In this document: positions 3,878 to 35,874 of the stretch, piece after piece
How positions within the stretch are numbered: position 1 is the first letter of the stretch
How the letters are laid out: each line of letters begins with the position of its first letter
NCBI GenBank assembly: GCA_050247195.1
Contig: JBFWUP010000004.1
Span: 64,537-128,536, forward strand
Length of the DNA stretch: 64,000 nt
DNA from: Candidatus Melainabacteria bacterium
Lineage (GTDB): Bacteria > Cyanobacteriota > Vampirovibrionia > Vampirovibrionales > Vampirovibrionaceae
Reading direction: 5' to 3'
Position numbers and translations under genes: made by a program
The notes under the pieces: model-generated
Database searches by the model: none
What the model saw: only the letters and a program-made list of their open reading frames with translations
Told to the model about the DNA's origin: nothing

Positions 3878-4993
<1,116 letters not shown>

Positions 4994-5056
4994 ATGCATC
5001 GATGTTCACAATCGTGTATGCTGGGGGCATGCCAGAGATAACCGGGAGGACATGTT

Positions 5057-5263
5057 ATGGCTTCCAACGACCCTGCTGAACAGGCGGCCTTTTATCAGCA
5101 CCGTTCAGTTGAAGCACTGATTGCACAACAAAGGGTTCAGCCTGTTCAATCCCTAGAAGCGCTGCGCGGTGATTTCTGGCCGGAAGCGGAAAGCATGGAT
5201 GATTTCGTTGAGACGATCCGCCGCTGGCGGCAGGAAGGGACACCGGCTGAGGGGCTCCTGTGA
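5057..5263 (+). CDS. Type II antitoxin (VapB-like) paired with the downstream PIN toxin
   Basis: It is a 68-aa acidic protein whose stop overlaps the toxin start by 4 bp (GTGA). The sequence …DFWPEAESMDDFVETIRRWRQE… is typical of PIN-partner antitoxins. Confidence 0.6.
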   Translation: MASNDPAEQAAFYQHRSVEALIAQQRVQPVQSLEALRGDFWPEAESMDDFVETIRRWRQEGTPAEGLL

Positions 5264-5655
5264 GCGGAACGCTTCTGATCGACACCAACGTCATTTCATT
5301 TATTCTCAAGGGCGACACGCGGGCTGCACGTTATTCATCACAGTTGGTCGGAAACGCTCTGGCCATCTCGTTTATGACTCTGGCGGAGCTGGACCGCTGG
5401 GCAATTGCACATCGTTGGGGAGAGCGAAAAAAGGCGCAATTGGATCATTATCTGACTCAGTTTGTCGTGTTACCGGTGGATCGGTTACTCTGCGAACAAT
5501 GGGCGAAAGTCAGCGATCAGGCGGCCAGGGACGGAAAACCGATTCAATGTGCCGATGCATGGATAGCGGCAACCGCCATTCTTTATGACATTCCACTGGT
5601 GACGCACAACCCCAAGGATTTTAAGCACATTACCGGCTTAAAAATATTACATTAA
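5260..5655 (+). CDS. vapC: PIN-domain ribonuclease toxin VapC
   Basis: The N-terminus reads LLIDTNVISF and conserved acidic residues follow at …DAWIAATAI…PLVTHNPKDF…. Confidence 0.8.
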   Translation: MSGTLLIDTNVISFILKGDTRAARYSSQLVGNALAISFMTLAELDRWAIAHRWGERKKAQLDHYLTQFVVLPVDRLLCEQWAKVSDQAARDGKPIQCADAWIAATAILYDIPLVTHNPKDFKHITGLKILH

Positions 5656-5703
5656 TAGCAAAAAAAGCACTTGCTTTTGACATCGGTTCACTACAAGTGA
5701 GCG

Positions 5704-6138
5704 TCATTGACTTATGTCTTCCAATACTTTTTCCAGAAATTCTTGTGGGTGCTCTTTCGCTAATCTATTTCCATCAATCCCCCCACTCAATATGAAGAGA
5801 GCATTTAATGCAATACACCCATAAGACGAGATACCAAATGCAAGCAATAGCCATCCCAATGGATTTTTCAAGATTAGCATTACGCCACTAACAATAATCA
5901 ATATCAACCCACCAAGTATACTTTGCCAACCGAACCCCATTAACAAAGCACCGAAGATACGAAGTTCAATATTTGGTTGTATGAGAAATAATGCCCCAAA
6001 AATACCGACTAAACTCCGGTATTTGTATAGCTGACAATAAATCATGCGAAACAAATAAATAGAGGTATGTACTAACGTTGCTAAAACTAGCAAAATAAAA
6101 GCTGGTATAGCGAATATCATTGATAGTATCGATGACAA
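5704..6138 (-). CDS. Hypothetical 4-TM membrane protein in an AT-rich (about 38% GC) islet
   Basis: The 144-aa translation is strongly hydrophobic. Local GC is far below the window average, suggesting foreign origin. Confidence 0.5.
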   Translation of the reverse strand: MSSILSMIFAIPAFILLVLATLVHTSIYLFRMIYCQLYKYRSLVGIFGALFLIQPNIELRIFGALLMGFGWQSILGGLILIIVSGVMLILKNPLGWLLLAFGISSYGCIALNALFILSGGIDGNRLAKEHPQEFLEKVLEDISQ

Positions 6139-6265
6139 GTCGCAACTCCCAATAGTAGCTTATTACTGTTTGGATTATAGCAGCCGTTGTTTGAGAATGA
6201 GCCCTAGTGACGCGAACTCTCGCGTACCAAAAACTGCTTCAAAAGCTGCCCTAGAAATAGGTTGG

Positions 6266-6968
6266 TCACGAACCGCCGGAAGTACACCCTCGCAGCGTGT
6301 CGATCGCGTAGCCCAGGTAATCCTGGCCTTTGGTGGGCGAGTGCTCGCCCGGGGAGTTATCAATGGAACGGCCACCACCGGCATCACGCACCCGGGATAA
6401 AAATTCCACCGCAGCCGCCAGTGTCTGAGGATCGCGCGTCTGGTAACGCTCCCACTGGCCCCCGGCATTGAGAGTCTGCTTATCCGGGAAAAACGTCATC
6501 AGGCACTCAGAGGGCCAAACAAACAACTCTTCACGAGAGCCCATGTCCGGCAGGTTCAGCGCCGTATCACCAACATCGCTCACCTGGAAGGGTCTGGTAA
6601 TCTGCTTATAGACAATATCCGTCCCCAAACCGCCGCCGCCCCAACCTGTGGAAAAGAAAATCGCATTGCCTGACGCCCCATTGCGGGTGGTCTGAAACAC
6701 ATCCACCTGGGTGTTCTCATAATACGCCTTGTTGCTGCCCGTCAGTTGCGTCTGATTCATAAAATCCCGTATCAGGGCCGTCTCCGCCGGCGAAGCCTCA
6801 ACCATTGAGGCGCGTCTGCTGTCATCCCGGCCGGGTGACGGAATGGACGCGCTGACTACAGTCGTCTGGTCAGCGGGAGGGGGCAGACGCACCACCGCCG
6901 GAGCATGCTACCAGAGGCAGACAAAGGGCAGCGGCAGACGCCGATCGCAGACGTGTGGATGTTTTCAT
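6266..6968 (-). pseudogene. Lipoprotein gene split by a +1 frameshift at a C5/G5 tract
   Basis: The minus strand from 6968 reads MKTSTRLRSASAAALCLPLVAC/SGGGASAPSR, then stops at 6870. The next reading frame continues for 209 aa (…PPPADQTTVV…). Removing one C from ccccc (plus-strand G5 at 6880-6884) would fuse the two frames. Confidence 0.5.
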
Positions 6969-7066
6969 GAGGATCGAGGATGTTACGTAATTTGTAGTAT
7001 TTTAACCCGTCCAGCAACCCGCACAAGGGCCGGGCGATACCGGATATCCCTGACGGATAGACGATC

Positions 7067-9097
7067 CTACGAATTTGCCTCTTCGCGGGCCACAAACTGC
7101 TTTAAAAGCTGCCACTGATCGCGCAGCTGGGCGGCCTTCTCAAACTCCAGCATTTTGGCCGCCGCACGCATGTCCGCTTCCAGCTCCTCAATCAGCCCGG
7201 GCAGCTTCGCCGGGTCCATCGCCTGCAGGGCCGCCACTTCCTCGCGGAAGGCGGCGTTGGGTTTGGCCGCGTCATGCGGCGCATCGGCGCTGCTGTTCAC
7301 CAGGTCCAGCAGGCTCATGGATATTTCCTTCTGAATCGTGCGTGGCGTGATGCCATGCGCGGTATTGTAAGCCATCTGTTTCTCACGGCGCCGGGCGGTC
7401 TCATCCATGGCGCGGGCCATACTGTCAGTAATGGTATCCGCATATAAAATCACACGGCCGGCCGCATTCCGCGCCGCCCGGCCAATGGTCTGCACCAGGC
7501 TCTGCTCGCTGCGCAGAAAGCCCTCCTTGTCGGCATCCATAATCGCCACCAGCGTTACCTCGGGCAAATCCAGCCCCTCACGCAGCAGGTTCACGCCAAT
7601 CAGCACGTCAAAATTGCCCAGCCGCAAATCGCGCAGAATCTCCACACGCTCCAGCGCCTTGATGTCACTGTGCAGGTACTTCACACGAACCGCCAGGCCT
7701 TCAAAGTAATCGGTGAGATCCTCAGCCATCTTCTTGGTCAGCGTGGTGATGAGCACACGCTCGTTGGCCGCCACACGCAAGCGGATTTCATGCAGCAGAT
7801 CATCCACCTGGTTGGCCGTGGGCCGCACCGCCACCTCGGGGTCCAGCAGGCCGGTGGGGCGAATAATCTGCTCGGCCACCTGCTCGGAAACGTCCAGCTC
7901 GTATCTGGAGGGCGTGGCGGAAATATAAATGCGCTGGTCAATCCGCGCCAGAAACTCGTCAAAACTCAGCGGGCGGTTGTCCCGCGCGCACGGCAGCCGG
8001 AAGCCGTAATCCACCAGCGTCTGCTTGCGTGAGGCGTCCCCGTGGTACATGCCGCGCAACTGCGGAATGGTCACGTGGCTTTCGTCAATCAGCAATAGAA
8101 AGTCATCGGGGAAGTAATCAATCAGCGTTTTGGGAGGCGAACCCGGCGGGCGGTTTTCAAAAATGCGGCTGTAGTTCTCAATACCGTTGCAGTACCCCAG
8201 TTCTTTCATCATCTCAATATCGCGCCGGGTTCGCTGTAGCAGGCGCTGCGCCTCCAGGGGCTTGCCCACCGATTCCAGCCATTTCAGCTGTTCATCCAGC
8301 TCGACCTGAATCTGCTGCACCGCGCGCGCCACATCATCCTCATCGGCCACGTAGTGCACGGCCGGGTAAATCACCACTTCCTCGGGCATGCTCACCACTT
8401 CGCCCGTGTCGGGATCCACAATGCTCAGGCGCTCCACTTCATCGCCAAAGAGTTCAATGCGCTGAATCTGTTCATCGTGCGCAGGAAAGACCTCAATAAT
8501 ATCGCCGCGCACGCGGAAGCAGGCGCGCTTCAGATCGAGATCCTGCCGGTGGTACTGGTTGCGGATCAGCAGACGTAGAAGCTCATCACGCTCGATCACA
8601 TCACCCACACGCAGGCGCAGAGACCCTTTGAAATAATTCTCCGGCAGTCCCAGGCCGTAAATGCAGCTCACACTGGAGACCACGACCACATCGCGCCGTT
8701 CAAACAGGCTGCGCGTGGCCGAATGGCGCATGCGATCGATTTCTTCATTGATGCTGGCCGTCTTTTCGATGTACGTATCCGTCCGCGGGACGTAGGCTTC
8801 GGGCTGATAGTAATCGTAATAACTGATGAAGTACTCCACGGCGTTTTCGGGAAAGAAGCCCCGGAATTCGTTGTACAGCTGGGCCGCGAGGGTTTTGTTA
8901 TGGGAAATAATCAGCGTGGGCCGCTGCGTGTGCTGAATGAGATTGGCCATGGTGTAGGTTTTCCCGGAGCCTGTCACCCCCAGCAGGGTCTGGGCCTTCA
9001 TGCCCTCATTCAGCCCCCGCACCAGGGCGTCAATGGCGGCAGGCTGGTCGCCGGAGGGGCCGAAGTCAGCGGTGAGGACAAAGGGTTTTTCAATCAT
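7067..9097 (-). CDS. uvrB: Excinuclease ABC subunit B
   Basis: The 676-aa product has a Walker A motif (GVTGSGKT), a helicase core and a C-terminal UVR domain (…[12 protein letters not shown]). Confidence 0.95.
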
Positions 9098-9161: not shown

Positions 9162-9304
9162 GCTTTGTGCGCTCCGAATCGAATTTTTGTAACACTGGGC
9201 GCTGTTTGAGTGCAGGTGTGAAACTTTTGCCCGAAATAAGCGTATTAGCTACAGCAGTCCAGCTCCCGTCTTTGTCGTCTTAATGGTTAATGAGAGGTGC
9301 CCCC

Positions 9305-9982
9305 ATGAGCTCTAAAACCACTGCCAGCCTGCTGGCCGGCCTGTTTGCCCTGTCGCTGCCCGTCAGCCTGATGCTGAGCCAGCCCGCCATGGCTGAAAAC
9401 ACCCCAGCCAAACACCCTGCCATCAAGCGGGACAGGGTTGAAGACCACCACGACCGCCGCGAAGACCGCCGGGACAGAATGGAAGATAGGGCTGACCGGC
9501 GCGAGGACCGTTGGGATGCCAAACATGACGGTGGACGGGCCGACAAACGCGAGGACCGCCGGGACCGGATGGAAGACCGGGCTGACCGGCACGAAGACCG
9601 CTGGGACCGCCGCGAGGACCGTCGGGAAGGCAGACGTGAAGACCGGCGTGAAGACCGGCGCGACGATCGCCGGGAGAACCGGCAGGACCCGAAACAGCTG
9701 GGCGACAAACCCCACCCGAACCATCCCAACCACCCGGATCACCCCCGGGACATCAGTGGGCCGGTGAGTGAACACCGTCACGAAGAAATGCGTTACCGTC
9801 GCGAGGATCGGCGGGATCGCATGGAAGACCGGGCCGACAAACGCGAAGACCGTTGGGATCGCCGAGAAGATCGCCGGGATGCGATGCATGACGGTGGCCC
9901 GATGGACCGCCGCGAGGATCGCTGGGATCGGCGTGAAGATCGCCGCGACGAGCGCGAAGACAGACGTGACGCCCGGCACTAA
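9305..9982 (+). CDS. Secreted protein built of tandem highly charged REDRRDRMEDRADRREDRWD repeats
   Basis: A GAGAGG Shine-Dalgarno lies 6 nt before the ATG. The product has a signal peptide (MSSKTTASLLAGLFALSLPVSLMLSQPAMA) and at least four copies of a roughly 30-aa repeat that are visible as nucleotide tandem repeats. Confidence 0.6.
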   Translation: MSSKTTASLLAGLFALSLPVSLMLSQPAMAENTPAKHPAIKRDRVEDHHDRREDRRDRMEDRADRREDRWDAKHDGGRADKREDRRDRMEDRADRHEDRWDRREDRREGRREDRREDRRDDRRENRQDPKQLGDKPHPNHPNHPDHPRDISGPVSEHRHEEMRYRREDRRDRMEDRADKREDRWDRREDRRDAMHDGGPMDRREDRWDRREDRRDEREDRRDARH

Positions 9983-27142: not shown

Positions 27143-27147
27143 CCTGC

Positions 27148-27288
27148 AAAAAAAATGCCCGCCGGTGGCAGGCAAAGTCTTGAGTAGAGTAAGTAGTAGA
27201 GTTAGAGTGTGTAGAAAAAATTGGAGTTGAGGTTTGTGTGGTATCCGCATAAAAACAGTCTTTTGGGTTTTTGTGCTAGTTTGTAACG
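27148..27288 (-). ncRNA. Putative small RNA module R1 (promoter-like motif, G-poor roughly 90-nt transcript, intrinsic terminator)
   Basis: It is the reverse complement of R2, matching over about 140 bp with one or two mismatches. It contains the ctagcacaaaaaccc…tgtttttatgcggata motif and a gcccgcc-acc-ggcgggc hairpin with a T-run. Confidence 0.3.
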
Positions 27289-27346: not shown

Positions 27347-28183
27347 TTGAGCCCTCCGACCCTTTCCGGCACAATGGCAGAGCAGGCCAGTGAATACGGA
27401 GAGCCCCGACAGATGCCCCACAACGCCATGGAAACCGCCTATGCCGCGCCAGAGATAGCCTTTGGCCCTTGCGGCGAGCCGTGCGATTCCCCATGTGACT
27501 CTCCCTGTGAGGGCGGTGGGGAGGCCGAAGGCCGCCAGGGCTGGCTGCAGAAACTCCTCTGTACGGGTTTCAACAACGCCATTGATCTCTGCTTTGACGA
27601 CGTGTACGCCGAACCCAAAACCATCCTGATGGTGGGCGGCTGCCGCCAGCGAACCTTTGCCCAGCGCCTCGCCCTGATGCTGCCCGGCGCCGAGATTGCC
27701 ATGGTGGATCCCAGTGAGGAAGAGGCTGTGCGCGCCAAACAGGAAATCTGCTGCCGTTTTGAGTTTTTTGTGGCCCCCATGGACCGGCTGCCCTTTGAGG
27801 ACGGCCAGTTTGACCTGGTACTGGCCCATAATCTGGCCGAACTGCTCCCGCCGCAAACCTGGGAAAGCGGCCTGAAAGAGGTGTTGCGCGTGGCCGGCAA
27901 AAACGTGCTGCTCAGCCATCATCGCGGGGGACTGACCCGGGGGATGGAAAGCCTGCTGGGCCTGTGGCCCGGCGCCCCCAGCCGTCCGGTTCAGGCCGCC
28001 CTGAAAGCCGGCGGAATAACGCTGCCGCAGACTCCGGCCCCCAACCCCGCCGATGTGAGGGCGCAACTGCGCCAACTGGCCCCGCAATACGATTTCACCA
28101 CGGAACTCACCCCCTTTCCCTGGCACTTATATATGGGGGTTCACCGGCAGATTCTGGCCGAACACACAGCCCGAACCGCCTGA
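27347..28183 (+). CDS. Class I SAM-dependent methyltransferase with an N-terminal CxxxCxxxCxxxC cysteine cluster
   Basis: It has a Methyltransf_11-like core (ILMVGGC…DLVLAHNL) and an N-terminal GPCGEPCDSPCDSPCEGGGE segment. Inverted copies of the R module flank it. Confidence 0.65.
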   Translation: MSPPTLSGTMAEQASEYGEPRQMPHNAMETAYAAPEIAFGPCGEPCDSPCDSPCEGGGEAEGRQGWLQKLLCTGFNNAIDLCFDDVYAEPKTILMVGGCRQRTFAQRLALMLPGAEIAMVDPSEEEAVRAKQEICCRFEFFVAPMDRLPFEDGQFDLVLAHNLAELLPPQTWESGLKEVLRVAGKNVLLSHHRGGLTRGMESLLGLWPGAPSRPVQAALKAGGITLPQTPAPNPADVRAQLRQLAPQYDFTTELTPFPWHLYMGVHRQILAEHTARTA

Positions 28184-28239: not shown

Positions 28240-28391
28240 CGTTACAAACTAGCACAAAAACCCAAAAGCCTGTTTTTATGCGGATACCACACAAACCTCA
28301 ACTCCAATTTTTTTCTACACACTCTAACTCTACTACTTACTCTACTCAAGACTTTGCCCGCCACCGGCGGGCATTTTTTTTGGCCGTGAGC
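28240..28391 (+). ncRNA. Putative small RNA module R2
   Basis: It has the same promoter-like motif, a G-poor region (ccacacaaacctcaactccaatttttttctacacactctaactctactacttactctactcaag), a perfect gcccgcc-acc-ggcgggc hairpin and a T8 run. Confidence 0.3.
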
Positions 28392-28451: not shown

Positions 28452-28568
28452 GGTTACAAACTAGCACAAAATTCAAAAATGGGGGTTTTATGCCCACAGA
28501 CAACACACTCTACTACTTACTCTACTCAAGACTTTGCCCGCCACCGGCGGGTTTTTTATTGGGCGCGG
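28452..28568 (+). ncRNA. Putative small RNA module R3 (diverged, shorter copy of R2)
   Basis: It contains ttacaaactagcacaaaa…ggttttatgcc…acactctactacttactctactcaagactttgcccgccaccggcgggtttttt. Confidence 0.3.
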
Positions 28569-33174: not shown

Positions 33175-33918
33175 TTGAAAACGACTGCGAAGAAAAAACC
33201 CGCTGCGAAGAAACCCGCAGCCAAGAAAACCACCAAGAAAGTGGCCGCCAAAAAGCCCACTGCCAAGAAAATGACCACCAAGAAAGTGGCTGCCAAGAAA
33301 CCGGCTGCTAAGAAAGCAACCAAAAAAGTAGTGGCCAAAAAGCCCGCTGCTAAGAAAACCGCAGCCAAGAAGCCCGTTGCTAAAAAAGCAACCACCAAAA
33401 AAGTGACGGCCAAGAAAACCGCCGCTAAAAAACCGGCTGCTAAAAAAGCAACCACCAAAAAAGTAGTGGCCAAAAAGCCCGCTGCTAAGAAACCGGCTGC
33501 CAAGAAAGCAACCAAAAAAGTAGTGGCCAAGAAAACCGCTGCTAAGAAACCGGTTGCCAAAAAGACTGCCGTAAAAAAAAAAGTAGTCTCTAAAACCGCT
33601 GCTAAAAAGCCACTCGCAAAAAAAAAAGTAGTGGCCAAAAAGCGCTCGGCTAATACGAAAACTGCCAGTAAAGCGGCAAAACCGGTCAACACCTTGTCCT
33701 CGCGGATTAAGGCGACGATCCAGGGTTTTGTGAACGCTCACCGTCAGTTCACCGCCAACGACATTTACGTGGAACTCGCGAAAACTGTCCGCGGCGTGAA
33801 CAAGCAGTCCGTCATCACGTCGGTGCTCAAGCAGATGAAAAGCAACTTCGCCACCGTTCGGGTCACCGAACGGGCGGGTGCAGGCCCCAGACCGGTCAAA
33901 CTGTACATTCCGGCCTGA
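33175..33918 (+). CDS. Histone H1-like lysine/alanine-rich nucleoid protein (KKPAAKK repeats) with a C-terminal globular domain
   Basis: An AAGGAG Shine-Dalgarno lies 9 nt before a TTG start. The N-terminal roughly 160 aa are tandem (A/T)KKPAAKK repeats, and the last roughly 80 aa are non-repetitive. Confidence 0.7.
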
Positions 33919-33951: not shown

Positions 33952-35874
33952 GTGGCAGGCTCTTTTTTACGGGCCGGACCCTATAATGGGAAGGTGCCCT
34001 CATCTGTAACAACCCACCCACCCCTTACGCGCGATCAGGCCGGGCGCGGGTTTGAGACGGCCCTGAAACCAGGCCGCCGTAAGCAACAAGGCCAGCACTT
34101 CACACCGGATGCCCTGTGCGACTGGATGATTGGCATAGCTGATCTCCGCCCGGGAGACCGGATCCTTGACCCGGCCTGCGGGACGGGCGCCTTTTTGCTG
34201 CGCACGCGCGCCGCGCTGGAAACCATGGGCGTGCCCACTGCCGCCATGGCCAAACAGCTGTTGGGCATGGAGCTGGACCCTGAGGCGGCCACCCTGTGCC
34301 GTCAGCAACTGGCGTTCTCTGAAAACTCGGTTTTCACCGGGGATTTTCTCACCCAGACAGTCTGGCCGGAAAACGCGATTGATGTCATTCTGGGCAACCC
34401 ACCGTATGTACGTCAGGAGATCCGCACCGGAAAAGATCACGCTCCCCGTGAGCAATGCGGGTTTGAGGATTACCTGCAGCACCACCCGGATCAGCGCCGT
34501 CTGTTCGGTCGGAGCGCCGATCTGTACATCCGCTTTCTTATTGAAGCCACCCGGTTGCTGAAACCCGGCGGGCGGCTGGTCTTTGTGCTCAGCAACAGCT
34601 GGCTGAACACGGCGCTGGGCGAACAGCTGCTCCGGTTTCTGGCGCACCATTACCAACTCGGTCAGCTGGTGGAAACCACCGCCGAAGCCTGGTTCCCCGA
34701 TGCCGCCGTACGTCCGGTCATCCTCAGCGCCACCCGCCGGCCCGGCTGGCGTAATGACTTTAAGGAAGAGACCGTTCAGTGCGTCACCCTGAGCCAACCC
34801 TTGCGCCAGCTGCTGTCGGATCCAAAGGGCCAGCCCCCCACGGGAGACACCCGGGTCGTTTCGCTCTTCGATCTGATCGGTCGTCAGCACCACCAGCCGC
34901 TGGCCAGCCGGGCCAGTTTTCTGCTGCGGTGCCCGGAGGCACTGGCCCGTGCGCTGGCAGGCATCCGTGATGGCTTCGTTCCGCTGAGTACGCTCGCCGC
35001 CGTCCGCTATCCGGTCAAAACCGGCATCAACGCGTTTTTCTACGTTACGCCGGAGATCATCCGGCAATTTGGCATTGAGCCCGACTACCTGCTGCCCGTC
35101 CTTAAGTCCGCCCGGCAGGCCAGGGGTCTTGAGCTCAATCCGGCAGAATCCCCGATCATGCTTTTTCATTGCCCGCATCCGCCCGAATTACTGAGGAAAA
35201 AAAAGCATCAAGGCGCACTGGGCTATATCCACTGGGGGCGTGGGCAACTGGCGCCGGTCCGCCAGAAGCGGGATCGGGCAGTCCCCTGGCCGGAGGTCGC
35301 CTCGGTTCAGGGGCGGCCATACTGGTACCAGGTCCCAAAGCCCAACGCGTCTCAGCTGTTCGCCCCACGCTTCGTGGACCAATCCGCACGCTTTTTGATC
35401 AGTGACACTCCCATGGTCGCCGATCAGACGTTTTACACCCTGCATCCCCAATCAACCGACCGGGTCCTGCTGGCCGCACTCCTCAACACCAGCCTGACCC
35501 GGCTGCTGCTGGCCCTGAACGGACGCACCAGCCTCGGCGATGGGGTGCTGCAGTTCAGCCGCGAGGACATCGCCCGCCTGGCCGTACCCATGCCCTGCAA
35601 CTACCCGAAAACAGAAAAACAGGCCATCATGGAAGCCTTCGGGGCCCTGGCGGCCCGGCCAGACGAGACAGCTGCCCGCCACCTGCTGGACCGGGCGGTG
35701 CTGGCGCCCCTCTTCAGACAAGACTGGCAGGACATCCAGGCGATGATTCTGGTGACGCTTGAACAGCTGACCACCGAACGGCGGCGTCTGGCGCATCAGC
35801 GAAAACGCCTCCAAAAAGAAAACGGTAACCTGCTGACGCAAATTACCGCTGAAGAGAGAAAAGAGAGCGAGTGA
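33952..35874 (+). CDS. N6-adenine-specific DNA methyltransferase (gamma class, TaqI/Eco57I-like), apparently orphan
   Basis: It carries motif I (ILDPACGTGAFLL) and motif IV (ILGNPPYV). The 640-aa product has a long C-terminal putative TRD, and no restriction endonuclease gene lies adjacent. Confidence 0.8.
   Translation: MAGSFLRAGPYNGKVPSSVTTHPPLTRDQAGRGFETALKPGRRKQQGQHFTPDALCDWMIGIADLRPGDRILDPACGTGAFLLRTRAALETMGVPTAAMAKQLLGMELDPEAATLCRQQLAFSENSVFTGDFLTQTVWPENAIDVILGNPPYVRQEIRTGKDHAPREQCGFEDYLQHHPDQRRLFGRSADLYIRFLIEATRLLKPGGRLVFVLSNSWLNTALGEQLLRFLAHHYQLGQLVETTAEAWFPDAAVRPVILSATRRPGWRNDFKEETVQCVTLSQPLRQLLSDPKGQPPTGDTRVVSLFDLIGRQHHQPLASRASFLLRCPEALARALAGIRDGFVPLSTLAAVRYPVKTGINAFFYVTPEIIRQFGIEPDYLLPVLKSARQARGLELNPAESPIMLFHCPHPPELLRKKKHQGALGYIHWGRGQLAPVRQKRDRAVPWPEVASVQGRPYWYQVPKPNASQLFAPRFVDQSARFLISDTPMVADQTFYTLHPQSTDRVLLAALLNTSLTRLLLALNGRTSLGDGVLQFSREDIARLAVPMPCNYPKTEKQAIMEAFGALAARPDETAARHLLDRAVLAPLFRQDWQDIQAMILVTLEQLTTERRRLAHQRKRLQKENGNLLTQITAEERKESE

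Follow-up and report, generated by a model that had tools for sequence, protein, structure and literature searches.

CIMEs (cis-mobilizable elements), as defined in PMC5704250, and decayed integrative elements in general are marked by flanking repeats at the 3' end of a conserved gene, by a foreign composition without integration or transfer genes of their own, and by element-supplied sequence that keeps the reading frame of the target gene. We describe here a cassette in the ruvB tail of a Melainabacteria MAG whose anatomy fits this definition, its repeats being 23 nt long with a 17-nt exact core. It is unlike CIMEs in measuring only 1.2 kb, in targeting ruvB rather than a tRNA or one of the usual protein-gene targets, and in its host lineage, and its likeness to them is one of anatomy. 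The cassette carries a gene pair that resembles the VapBC type II modules, with which it shares a PIN domain above the Pfam cutoff, the residues D8, E43 and D99, and a small upstream antitoxin gene with a 4-nt overlap, as well as hundreds of VapC homologues at 50-59% identity. Next to the cassette lies a broken lipoprotein gene that can be compared with two further systems. With frameshift pseudogenes at short homopolymers it shares a single-base indel in a C/G run and an otherwise open ORF; it differs from typical cases in that its intact state has been deduced purely from the reading frames. With the contingency loci of Neisseria, Campylobacter and Bordetella it shares a C/G tract just past the signal peptide of a putative surface lipoprotein, but the tract is only 5 nt, a background length, and no length polymorphism was seen among the assemblies.

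We analysed a window of 64,000 nucleotides, and all positions below refer to this stretch. The features of the ruvB-uvrB region are as follows.

3878-4993, plus strand: ruvB (Pfam RuvB_N, AAA_lid_4 and RuvB_C, E down to 9e-71; GC3 0.77)
4962-4984, plus strand: left repeat copy (attL-like), within the ruvB tail, codons …QQPLFEGE
4985-6178, no strand: cassette body between the repeat copies, of foreign, mosaic composition; copy-to-copy spacing 1,217 bp
5057-5263, plus strand: vapB-like antitoxin, 68 aa, with a Shine-Dalgarno sequence GGGAGG 7 nt upstream and a 4-nt overlap with vapC
5260-5655, plus strand: vapC PIN-domain toxin (Pfam PIN), 131 aa, apparently intact
5704-6138, minus strand: AT-rich membrane protein, 144 aa, with a TTG start and GGGAG 7 nt upstream
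6174-6182, minus strand: candidate extended -10 element TGCTATAAT for the membrane protein gene, read from the sequence and spanning the cassette end and the repeat core
6179-6207, plus strand: right repeat copy (attR-like, 6179-6201) and displaced original ruvB tail, from the repeat search and the codon register
6266-6895, minus strand: lipoprotein gene body, a 209-codon open frame, +1 relative to the signal-peptide frame; GC 59%, in-frame GC3 0.67
6870-6968, minus strand: lipoprotein signal peptide ORF, 32 codons, beginning MKTSTRLRSASAAALCLPLVAC…, with lipobox LVAC and Cys22
6879-6883, no strand: G5 run (C5 on the coding strand); removal of one base here gives a lipoprotein of 233 aa, and the indel may have occurred at any position within about 6870-6907
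7067-9097, minus strand: uvrB, the core gene of the right flank (Pfam UvrB_inter, UvrB, Helicase_C and UVR)

The window stems from a landfill Melainabacteria MAG obtained from Illumina HiSeq 2x150 reads (bioRxiv 10.1101/2024.05.30.596742). All assemblies compared originate from project PRJNA1070006, whose MAGs were built with SPAdes, and Logan provided a second assembly pipeline. Logan contigs from three runs (SRR27751815, -16 and -17) were 100% identical to the window across the ruvB-uvrB region; because these runs are separate, the locus is not chimeric. ORF order and Pfam confirmed that a VapBC pair, a gene for a protein with four transmembrane helices (4-TM protein) and a frameshifted lipoprotein gene all lie between ruvB and uvrB, as the initial annotation had described. 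An Rfam search of positions 4500-7500 returned no match, and no tRNA was found near the insertion site. In RuvB-anchored scans for the same interval in relatives, the best RuvB identity was 62% among the species representatives of GTDB and 59% among JGI metagenomes, with no synteny. At such identities and without shared neighbours, the interval in relatives is not comparable, and no close relative with the ancestral ruvB-lipoprotein arrangement was found among the GTDB representatives or the JGI metagenomes.

The local drop in GC that had been reported for this interval was borne out: positions 5656-6265 have 38.7% GC against 59.7% for the whole window, the 4-TM ORF itself has 36.3%, and no part of the 64 kb falls lower than the trough between ruvB and uvrB. 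Dips in GC elsewhere in the window were considered as analogues and rejected, one being the gene of a Lys-rich protein and the rest intergenic repeats. Third codon positions likewise agreed with the claim of a foreign composition for part of the interval. GC3 was 0.54 for vapB, 0.55 for vapC and 0.33 for the 4-TM gene, thus 0.33-0.55 inside the cassette, compared with 0.74-0.77 for ruvB and uvrB and 0.67 for the lipoprotein gene. The GC content inside the cassette is mosaic (50-57% vs 36%), and more than one event may therefore have shaped the cassette.

The edges of the foreign segment are marked by a direct repeat of 23 nt, 17 nt of them exact, whose copies at 4962-4984 and 6179-6201 duplicate the 3' end of ruvB. 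The window contains the 17-nt exact core, AGCAGCCGTTGTTTGAG, just twice, against a chance expectation of 0.2 occurrences when up to three mismatches are allowed. The position of the repeat coincides with the break in composition, such that the GC3 values of 0.33-0.55 lie inside and those of the lipoprotein gene, ruvB and uvrB outside. Between the repeat copies are only the vapB, vapC and 4-TM ORFs. At the right junction, the original ruvB tail is stranded in register, reading …QPLFENEP* with its TAG at 6205-6207 (the FENEP* piece occupies 6196-6207), and the present ruvB ends in …FEGENG*, the last five codons of which (GENG*) are cassette-derived. The islet is thus a 1,217-bp insertion of vapBC and the 4-TM gene in the 3' end of ruvB, and the lipoprotein gene is resident DNA outside it. 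Four exact matches to the 17-mer core in IMG/VR were dismissed as chance, their flanks and proteins being without similarity, and the whole interval had no match among plasmids (blastn).

These boundaries bear directly on how many events the interval records. The initial annotation had treated the lipoprotein and 4-TM genes as a two-gene unit and the whole as a small defence or surface-variation islet. It is true that all the genes are adjacent and sit between core genes, and that the lipoprotein gene is separated from the 4-TM gene by 127 nt and shares its strand, as would be expected if they and VapBC had been acquired together as one functional islet. However, the repeat boundary at 6179-6201 falls between the lipoprotein and 4-TM genes, which also differ in GC3 (0.67 vs 0.33), and the 4-TM gene comes with an RBS, and probably a promoter, of its own. 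VapC homologues, moreover, have no recurring membrane or lipoprotein neighbour and occur in varied contexts, and a PADLOC search with the four proteins yielded nothing significant (best E=0.019, 12 bits). We accordingly gave up the two-gene unit, see no support for the defence or surface-variation role, and regard a jointly acquired islet as very improbable. The reading that we favour, with reasonable though far from complete confidence, is that two separate, ordinary events lie side by side, namely an integrated foreign cassette and a frameshifted resident lipoprotein gene.

Under the favoured two-event reading, a foreign 1.2-kb cassette, comprising vapB-vapC and a convergent, AT-rich orphan 4-TM gene, would have inserted into the last codons of ruvB. 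The anatomy of the junctions points to integration by site-specific recombination as the most likely route, in which att x att exchange would have duplicated a core of 17-23 bp at both ends. The cassette would thereby have donated the new ruvB tail (…FEGENG*) and left the old one (…FENEP*) at the right junction. The precomputed Pfam calls, which reach from 3.7 kb ahead of window position 1 as far as about 37 kb, contained no recombinase domain. As there is no recombinase gene inside the cassette or nearby, it would represent a decayed, integrase-less remnant of the CIME type, and an intact VapBC addiction module could help to keep it in place. Our searches recovered neither an empty site nor an excised circle, no further copy of the cassette and no cognate integrase-bearing element.

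We next consider the VapBC module. VapC scored 55.6 bits against PF01850 (PIN), well above the cutoff of 23.6 (E=1e-14), and had 555 homologues at E<=1e-10, the best of them 59% identical. In an alignment with ten homologues, D8, E43 and D99 were invariant and N117 and D120 nearly so, and all five residues are present in the protein studied here. VapC remained below the NCBIfam cutoffs for tRNA(fMet)-specific toxins, with 67.8 vs 140 bits for NF047863, 41.7 vs 143 for NF047959 and 26.4 vs 80 for the subfamily model NF010285. Judged by its sequence, VapC is a PIN toxin of an ordinary kind and is intact. The VapB-like ORF matched no Pfam or NCBIfam model. Its C-terminal motif GDFWP-E--D-F--TIR-WR-EG is nevertheless invariant also in the ORFs directly upstream of VapC homologues at three other loci. 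In contrast to the partners of homologous VapCs, which have 96-100 aa, the antitoxin here has 68 aa. Homologous vapBC pairs occupy unrelated genomic contexts, as expected for mobile toxin-antitoxin cassettes.

The third gene of the cassette encodes a protein for which hydropathy predicts about four transmembrane helices and an acidic C-terminal helix. The AF2 model was all-helical with a pLDDT of 72, and Foldseek returned nothing from the PDB at E<1. Homology searches retrieved only copies of the protein itself; there was no match in Pfam, NCBIfam, PADLOC or PHROGs, none in plasmids and phages (tblastn) and none in an IMG/VR scan, nor was there similarity to an Rce1-like membrane protein encoded convergently to a VapBC homologue. 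A scan for promoter consensus sequences did not report TGCTATAAT, which has no -35 match; reading the sequence directly, we consider an extended -10 promoter likely. The 4-TM gene would be cargo with its own RBS and a likely extended -10 promoter, and that its product could be a membrane immunity or exclusion-type protein is a guess. A bolder proposal would take the 1.2-kb vapBC and 4-TM unit as a still-mobile, integrase-less mini-element that is mobilised in trans and targets the ruvB 3' end in unsampled Melainabacteria, with the 4-TM protein as a new membrane immunity or exclusion factor or as a third VapBC partner; alternatively, it would have the lipoprotein made by +1 frameshifting at CCC-U. 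We regard this proposal as a long shot.

Having placed the lipoprotein gene outside the cassette, we turn to the gene itself. Six-frame filtering of the window for a lipoprotein signal (positive n-region, hydrophobic h-region and lipobox [LVI][ASTVI][GAS]C) gave two hits, one of them MKTSTRLRSASAAALCLPLVAC, which argues against a chance occurrence. The initial annotation had called this signal convincing and had noted a stop after 32 codons with the remaining 209 aa in the next frame, and both observations were upheld by the scan and the ORF translation, respectively. Signal peptide and mature domain are not in one frame, and this is likewise the case in all assemblies. The 209-aa frame has a host-like GC3 of 0.67; the two alternative frames reach 0.59 and 0.52. 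Together with the rarity of the lipobox pattern in the window, this indicates that the lipoprotein gene was once real.

An opposing view is that a single lipoprotein gene never existed, the 32-codon ORF being fortuitous or separate and the downstream frame encoding a cytoplasmic protein that starts at an internal ATG. This would agree with the gene callers, as NCBI and Logan annotate products of 164 aa and 179 aa, and with the fact that the fused architecture is found in no homologue. Yet the signal with its n-region, h-region and lipobox, one of only two in the window, is on the same strand as the open frame and overlaps its 5' end. In addition, the body frame continues without a stop for 45 codons ahead of the start annotated for the 164-aa product, and a single base gives one continuous ORF. 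The upstream extension is rich in Ser, Pro and Ala, and a tether of this composition is typical of lipoproteins. We therefore consider two unrelated ORFs unlikely and retain a single lipoprotein gene.

Homology searches added little to this picture. A word-indexed search of 5.8 billion clusters with the repaired 233-aa lipoprotein found only the protein itself and no in-frame allele, and a full HMMER search over 1.84 billion cluster representatives also found only itself. Nothing significant emerged from Pfam, NCBIfam, PADLOC or PHROGs, the best PDB sequence match reached only E=0.73, and a single-sequence AF2 model had a pLDDT of 35. One candidate, a repeat protein, was set aside as a spurious match to a 36-residue motif. 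Since the gene has no homologues, the intact lipoprotein has been reconstructed rather than observed. Neither the lipoprotein nor the 4-TM protein has detectable relatives among about 15 billion sequences. In the Pfam search of the locus, DUF4241 (PF14025) reached 16.4 bits vs a gathering threshold of 27 (E=0.01, residues 63-112 only) and stays a lead only.

For the frameshift, the initial annotation was right that deletion of one base fuses the two frames, but the run lies at 6879-6883 rather than 6880-6884, and the product has 233 aa instead of about 240. In the fused lipoprotein frame, the junction reads …GGGASAPPADQTT…. The C5 tract is identical in two single-run contigs and one MAG contig, and the same truncated 164-aa call appears in both NCBI MAGs. 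Because C5 recurs in two single-run contigs, both MAGs carry the same call and no in-frame allele is present among about 15 billion proteins, we conclude that the frameshift is real and dominant, with the reservation that consensus assemblies can conceal a minority in-frame allele.

Three origins of the frameshift had been put forward: sequencing error, recent pseudogenisation and phase variation. An artefact of sequencing or assembly, with an intact gene in reality, would belong to a common class, as homopolymer indels often arise in this way, and with the single project PRJNA1070006 behind all assemblies a systematic error could be shared. Against this, a 5-nt run is not error-prone in Illumina 2x150 reads. 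Furthermore, the SPAdes and Logan pipelines agree, two runs are 100% identical over 2.9-7 kb, and both MAGs give the same product. Given this agreement among the assemblies, an error is scarcely credible. Phase variation would make the locus a contingency locus, in which slippage of the C tract turns a surface lipoprotein ON (C4) or OFF (C5), the sampled population being OFF. A homopolymer just past the signal peptide is the classic site for translational phase variation, the downstream frame is still fully open, and in Bordetella tracts as short as C6 (bvgS) have been reported to vary (PMC1891110). On the other hand, 5-nt tracts are common here: G/C runs of at least 5 number 139 in the 64 kb, or one per 460 bp, with a longest run of 7, so that C5 does not rise above background. 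The recognised contingency tracts of C. jejuni have a length of 7 or more (PMC4965091). Tract length was also equal in the two single-run contigs, and no in-frame allele occurred among the proteins. We hence regard a contingency locus as quite unlikely.

What stands of the three is pseudogenisation, and a recently inactivated pseudogene is the most likely state of the lipoprotein gene, as suggested by a C5 allele that is the consensus in every assembly and by a body that has kept its open frame and its codon bias. The gene is lineage-specific, and one extra C, probably in the run that is now C5, would part the signal peptide with its lipobox from the mature domain of 209 codons. Expression could still be restored at the level of translation. 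CCC-U is a shift-prone P-site context for tRNA-Pro, and programmed +1 frameshifting, with tRNA-Pro slipping from CCC to CCU in GCC-CCC-UCC, would yield the full 233-aa lipoprotein. The required shift is indeed +1, and the resulting protein would be the same as that reconstructed by deleting one base. However, the A site holds neither a stop nor a rare codon, the stop following two codons on (GCC-CCC-UCC-CGC-UGA). There is no SD-like stimulator at the 3-nt spacing of the prfB type (GGUGGU ends 9 nt upstream of CCC), the local RNA fold does not exceed shuffled sequences in stability (z = -0.57), and there are no homologues to show conservation of the site. We thus judge a programmed event extremely unlikely, and the broken pseudogene would at most be leakily expressed via spontaneous +1 slippage of tRNA-Pro at CCC-U.

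According to these data, what appears as a single islet resolves into a toxin-antitoxin cassette, whose att-like boundaries in the ruvB tail are precise, and a resident gene unrelated to it whose frameshift is genuine. Both changes to the genome are ordinary in kind and do not overturn current understanding. They do allow the deposited annotation to be corrected, as the 164-aa "hypothetical protein" represents the tail of a broken lipoprotein gene, and they flag a candidate integration site in a poorly sampled, non-photosynthetic sister lineage of the cyanobacteria.

ORF and Pfam calls returned the gene order that the initial annotation had given, with a toxin-antitoxin (TA) pair, a four-helix membrane protein (4-TM) gene and a split lipoprotein gene between ruvB and uvrB.

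3878-4993, plus strand: ruvB; GC3 0.77
5057-5263, plus strand: vapB-like 68-aa ORF, 4-nt overlap with the PIN-domain ORF; GC3 0.54
5260-5655, plus strand: vapC, PIN-domain ORF (Pfam PIN); GC3 0.55
5704-6138, minus strand: hydrophobic 144-aa ORF (4-TM gene); GC 36.3%, GC3 0.33
6266-6895, minus strand: lipoprotein body, 209-codon ORF; GC3 0.67
6870-6968, minus strand: lipoprotein signal, 32-codon ORF, start MKTSTRLRSASAAALCLPLVAC
7067-9097, minus strand: uvrB; GC3 0.74

The GC trough described before is likewise real, as the 4-TM ORF (compared to 59.7% for the window) is the lowest point of the 64 kb. A repeat search revealed a direct repeat of 23 nt, with copies at 4962-4984 and 6179-6201 that are identical at 21 of 23 positions and exact over the first 17. 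This 17-mer core occurs exactly twice in the window, where 0.2 occurrences are expected even at up to 3 mismatches. The end of ruvB forms the left copy, and the right copy runs on in the ruvB codon register (…QPLFENEP*) to a TAG at 6205-6207. The 1,217-bp unit thus bordered contains no gene other than vapB, vapC and the 4-TM gene, with GC3 values of 0.33 to 0.55 as compared to 0.67 to 0.77 outside. Given the repeat borders and its outside-type GC3, the lipoprotein gene is resident DNA. It had been grouped with the 4-TM gene into one islet unit, which is untenable because the repeat border excludes it and the GC3 values of the two genes differ twofold.

Such repeats are the expected trace of an att x att event at the ruvB 3' end, in which the element would donate a new ruvB tail and the old tail would be shifted to the far junction. 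Prior to insertion, the lipoprotein gene would have been convergent with ruvB over a 58-bp spacer. Precomputed Pfam calls list no recombinase inside the cassette or anywhere in the stretch that starts 3.7 kb ahead of position 1 and extends to about 37 kb. Among known categories the nearest is the CIME (PMC5704250), a decayed integrative element in which attL and attR remain although the integrase is gone, and we consider the cassette a probable att-flanked remnant of this category. An empty site, a circle or a second cassette copy was not found in the searchable collections because these hold no close relatives, RuvB identity being at most 62% among GTDB species representatives and 59% in JGI metagenomes, without synteny.

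Regarding the cargo, VapC is an ordinary PIN toxin and apparently functional: the PIN domain scores above the Pfam cutoff, 555 homologues were detected at E<=1e-10 with identities of up to 59%, and D8, E43 and D99 are conserved. It falls below the NCBIfam equivalog cutoffs for tRNA(fMet)-specific enzymes. No model matched the 68-aa VapB-like protein, which shares the invariant motif GDFWP-E--D-F--TIR-WR-EG with ORFs directly upstream of VapC homologues. Compared to the 96-100 aa of these partners, it is about 30 residues shorter, an internal stretch of ~27 residues being absent with both ends kept. The homologous vapBC pairs reside in unrelated neighbourhoods, as expected for mobile TA cassettes. 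For the 4-TM protein, hydropathy and a predicted model indicate approximately four hydrophobic helices plus a C-terminal helix that is acidic, and searches for homologues, families, folds, plasmids and phages all came back without a match. Inspection by eye located GGGAG 7 nt before the TTG start and a candidate extended -10 element, TGCTATAAT (6182-6174, minus strand), lying partly in the end of the cassette and partly in the repeat core, so that the gene looks expressible on its own. Our guess is a membrane immunity or exclusion-type cargo. On the plus strand the gene also has a C6 run (5779-5784; G6 on the coding strand), exceeding the C5 run of the lipoprotein gene.

For the lipoprotein gene, a one-base deletion does fuse the two frames as proposed; the G5 run, however, lies at 6879-6883 rather than 6880-6884, and the repaired product has 233 aa instead of about 240. 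The frameshift is real. The window matches NCBI contig JBFXCH010000004.1, from the "Candidatus Melainabacteria bacterium" MAG GCA_050182425.1, at every position, and the same DNA recurs in the Logan assemblies for SRR27751815, -16 and -17, Illumina HiSeq 2x150 landfill metagenomes of the CA_2019 set (PRJNA1070006; bioRxiv 10.1101/2024.05.30.596742). Two single-run Logan matches, L026/L027 (7,056 bp, SRR27751815) and L028 (2,941 bp, SRR27751816), align gaplessly at 100% identity, C5 tract included, and two NCBI MAG contigs that were deposited separately (213.7 and 266.6 kb) share exactly the same truncated 164-aa call. Querying 5.8 billion clusters with the repaired protein returned the truncated form only, so the collection contains no assembled in-frame allele. 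Since the chemistry is Illumina and the two assemblers agree, the suggested sequencing or assembly error is unlikely. Separately, the Logan contigs of SRR27751815 and SRR27751816 both stop exactly at 4597, inside ruvB, which suggests an assembly-graph branch through strain variation or a k-mer common to another ruvB of the community.

We do not regard the lipoprotein signal peptide as a fortuitous ORF; when all six frames of the window were passed through a lipobox filter, two matches came out, this ORF among them. The 209-codon frame has a host-like GC3 excess (0.67 vs 0.59 and 0.52 in the other two frames), and by our rough estimate its chance of staying open in 59%-GC DNA is ~1e-3. Among 1.84 billion representatives the body has no detectable relative; the sole lead is a match to DUF4241 below threshold (16.4 bits, cutoff 27), and structure prediction gave no usable model (pLDDT 35). 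Both frames are open over about 6870-6907, where the indel could lie anywhere, the C5 run being its most economical site.

Phase variation had also been proposed. As there are 139 G/C runs of >=5 nt in the window, some of 6 and 7, the C5 tract is no longer than background, and recognised contingency tracts are longer: those described for C. jejuni in PMC4965091 have 7 or more, and a short example is the C6 in bvgS (PMC1891110). Alternatively, a programmed +1 shift of tRNA-Pro from CCC to CCU, which is chemically possible, could express the lipoprotein; the site, however, has no adjacent stop or hungry codon and no SD-like stimulator at prfB spacing, and local RNA structure is ordinary (z = -0.57). 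Lacking these marks and those of a contingency tract, the gene is best read as a recent pseudogene, one of the explanations initially offered, in which rare reversion or leaky slippage may occur.

Elsewhere in the window, a ~142-bp sequence is present in two inverted, 99% complementary copies (27147-27288 and 28240-28382) flanking a methyltransferase gene (~27413-28183, Pfam Methyltransf_25/11). In each copy a T-run follows a GC hairpin, and further partial tandem copies lie downstream (28453-28564); the pair could be MITE-like, act as bidirectional terminators that are shared, or mark an invertible segment. At 9290-9982 (plus strand), a predicted secreted protein with an N-terminal signal (…PAMA) consists almost entirely of Arg/Asp/Glu-rich repeats (DRREDRRDRMEDRADRREDRWD…), with no Pfam match in the precomputed calls. 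A low-GC dip at 32.6-33.8 kb is due to the gene for a Lys/Ala-rich, AKKP-repeat, histone-H1-like protein (33175-33918, plus strand), directly followed by an Eco57I-type N6-adenine methyltransferase gene (33952-35874, plus strand).

In sum, the initial observation is confirmed and its interpretation right in part. We found no evidence that the islet serves defence or surface variation. The ruvB tail harbours a short remnant of an att-flanked TA cassette, and an independently frameshifted orphan lipoprotein gene adjoins it. Both events belong to known kinds, and their interest is modest.
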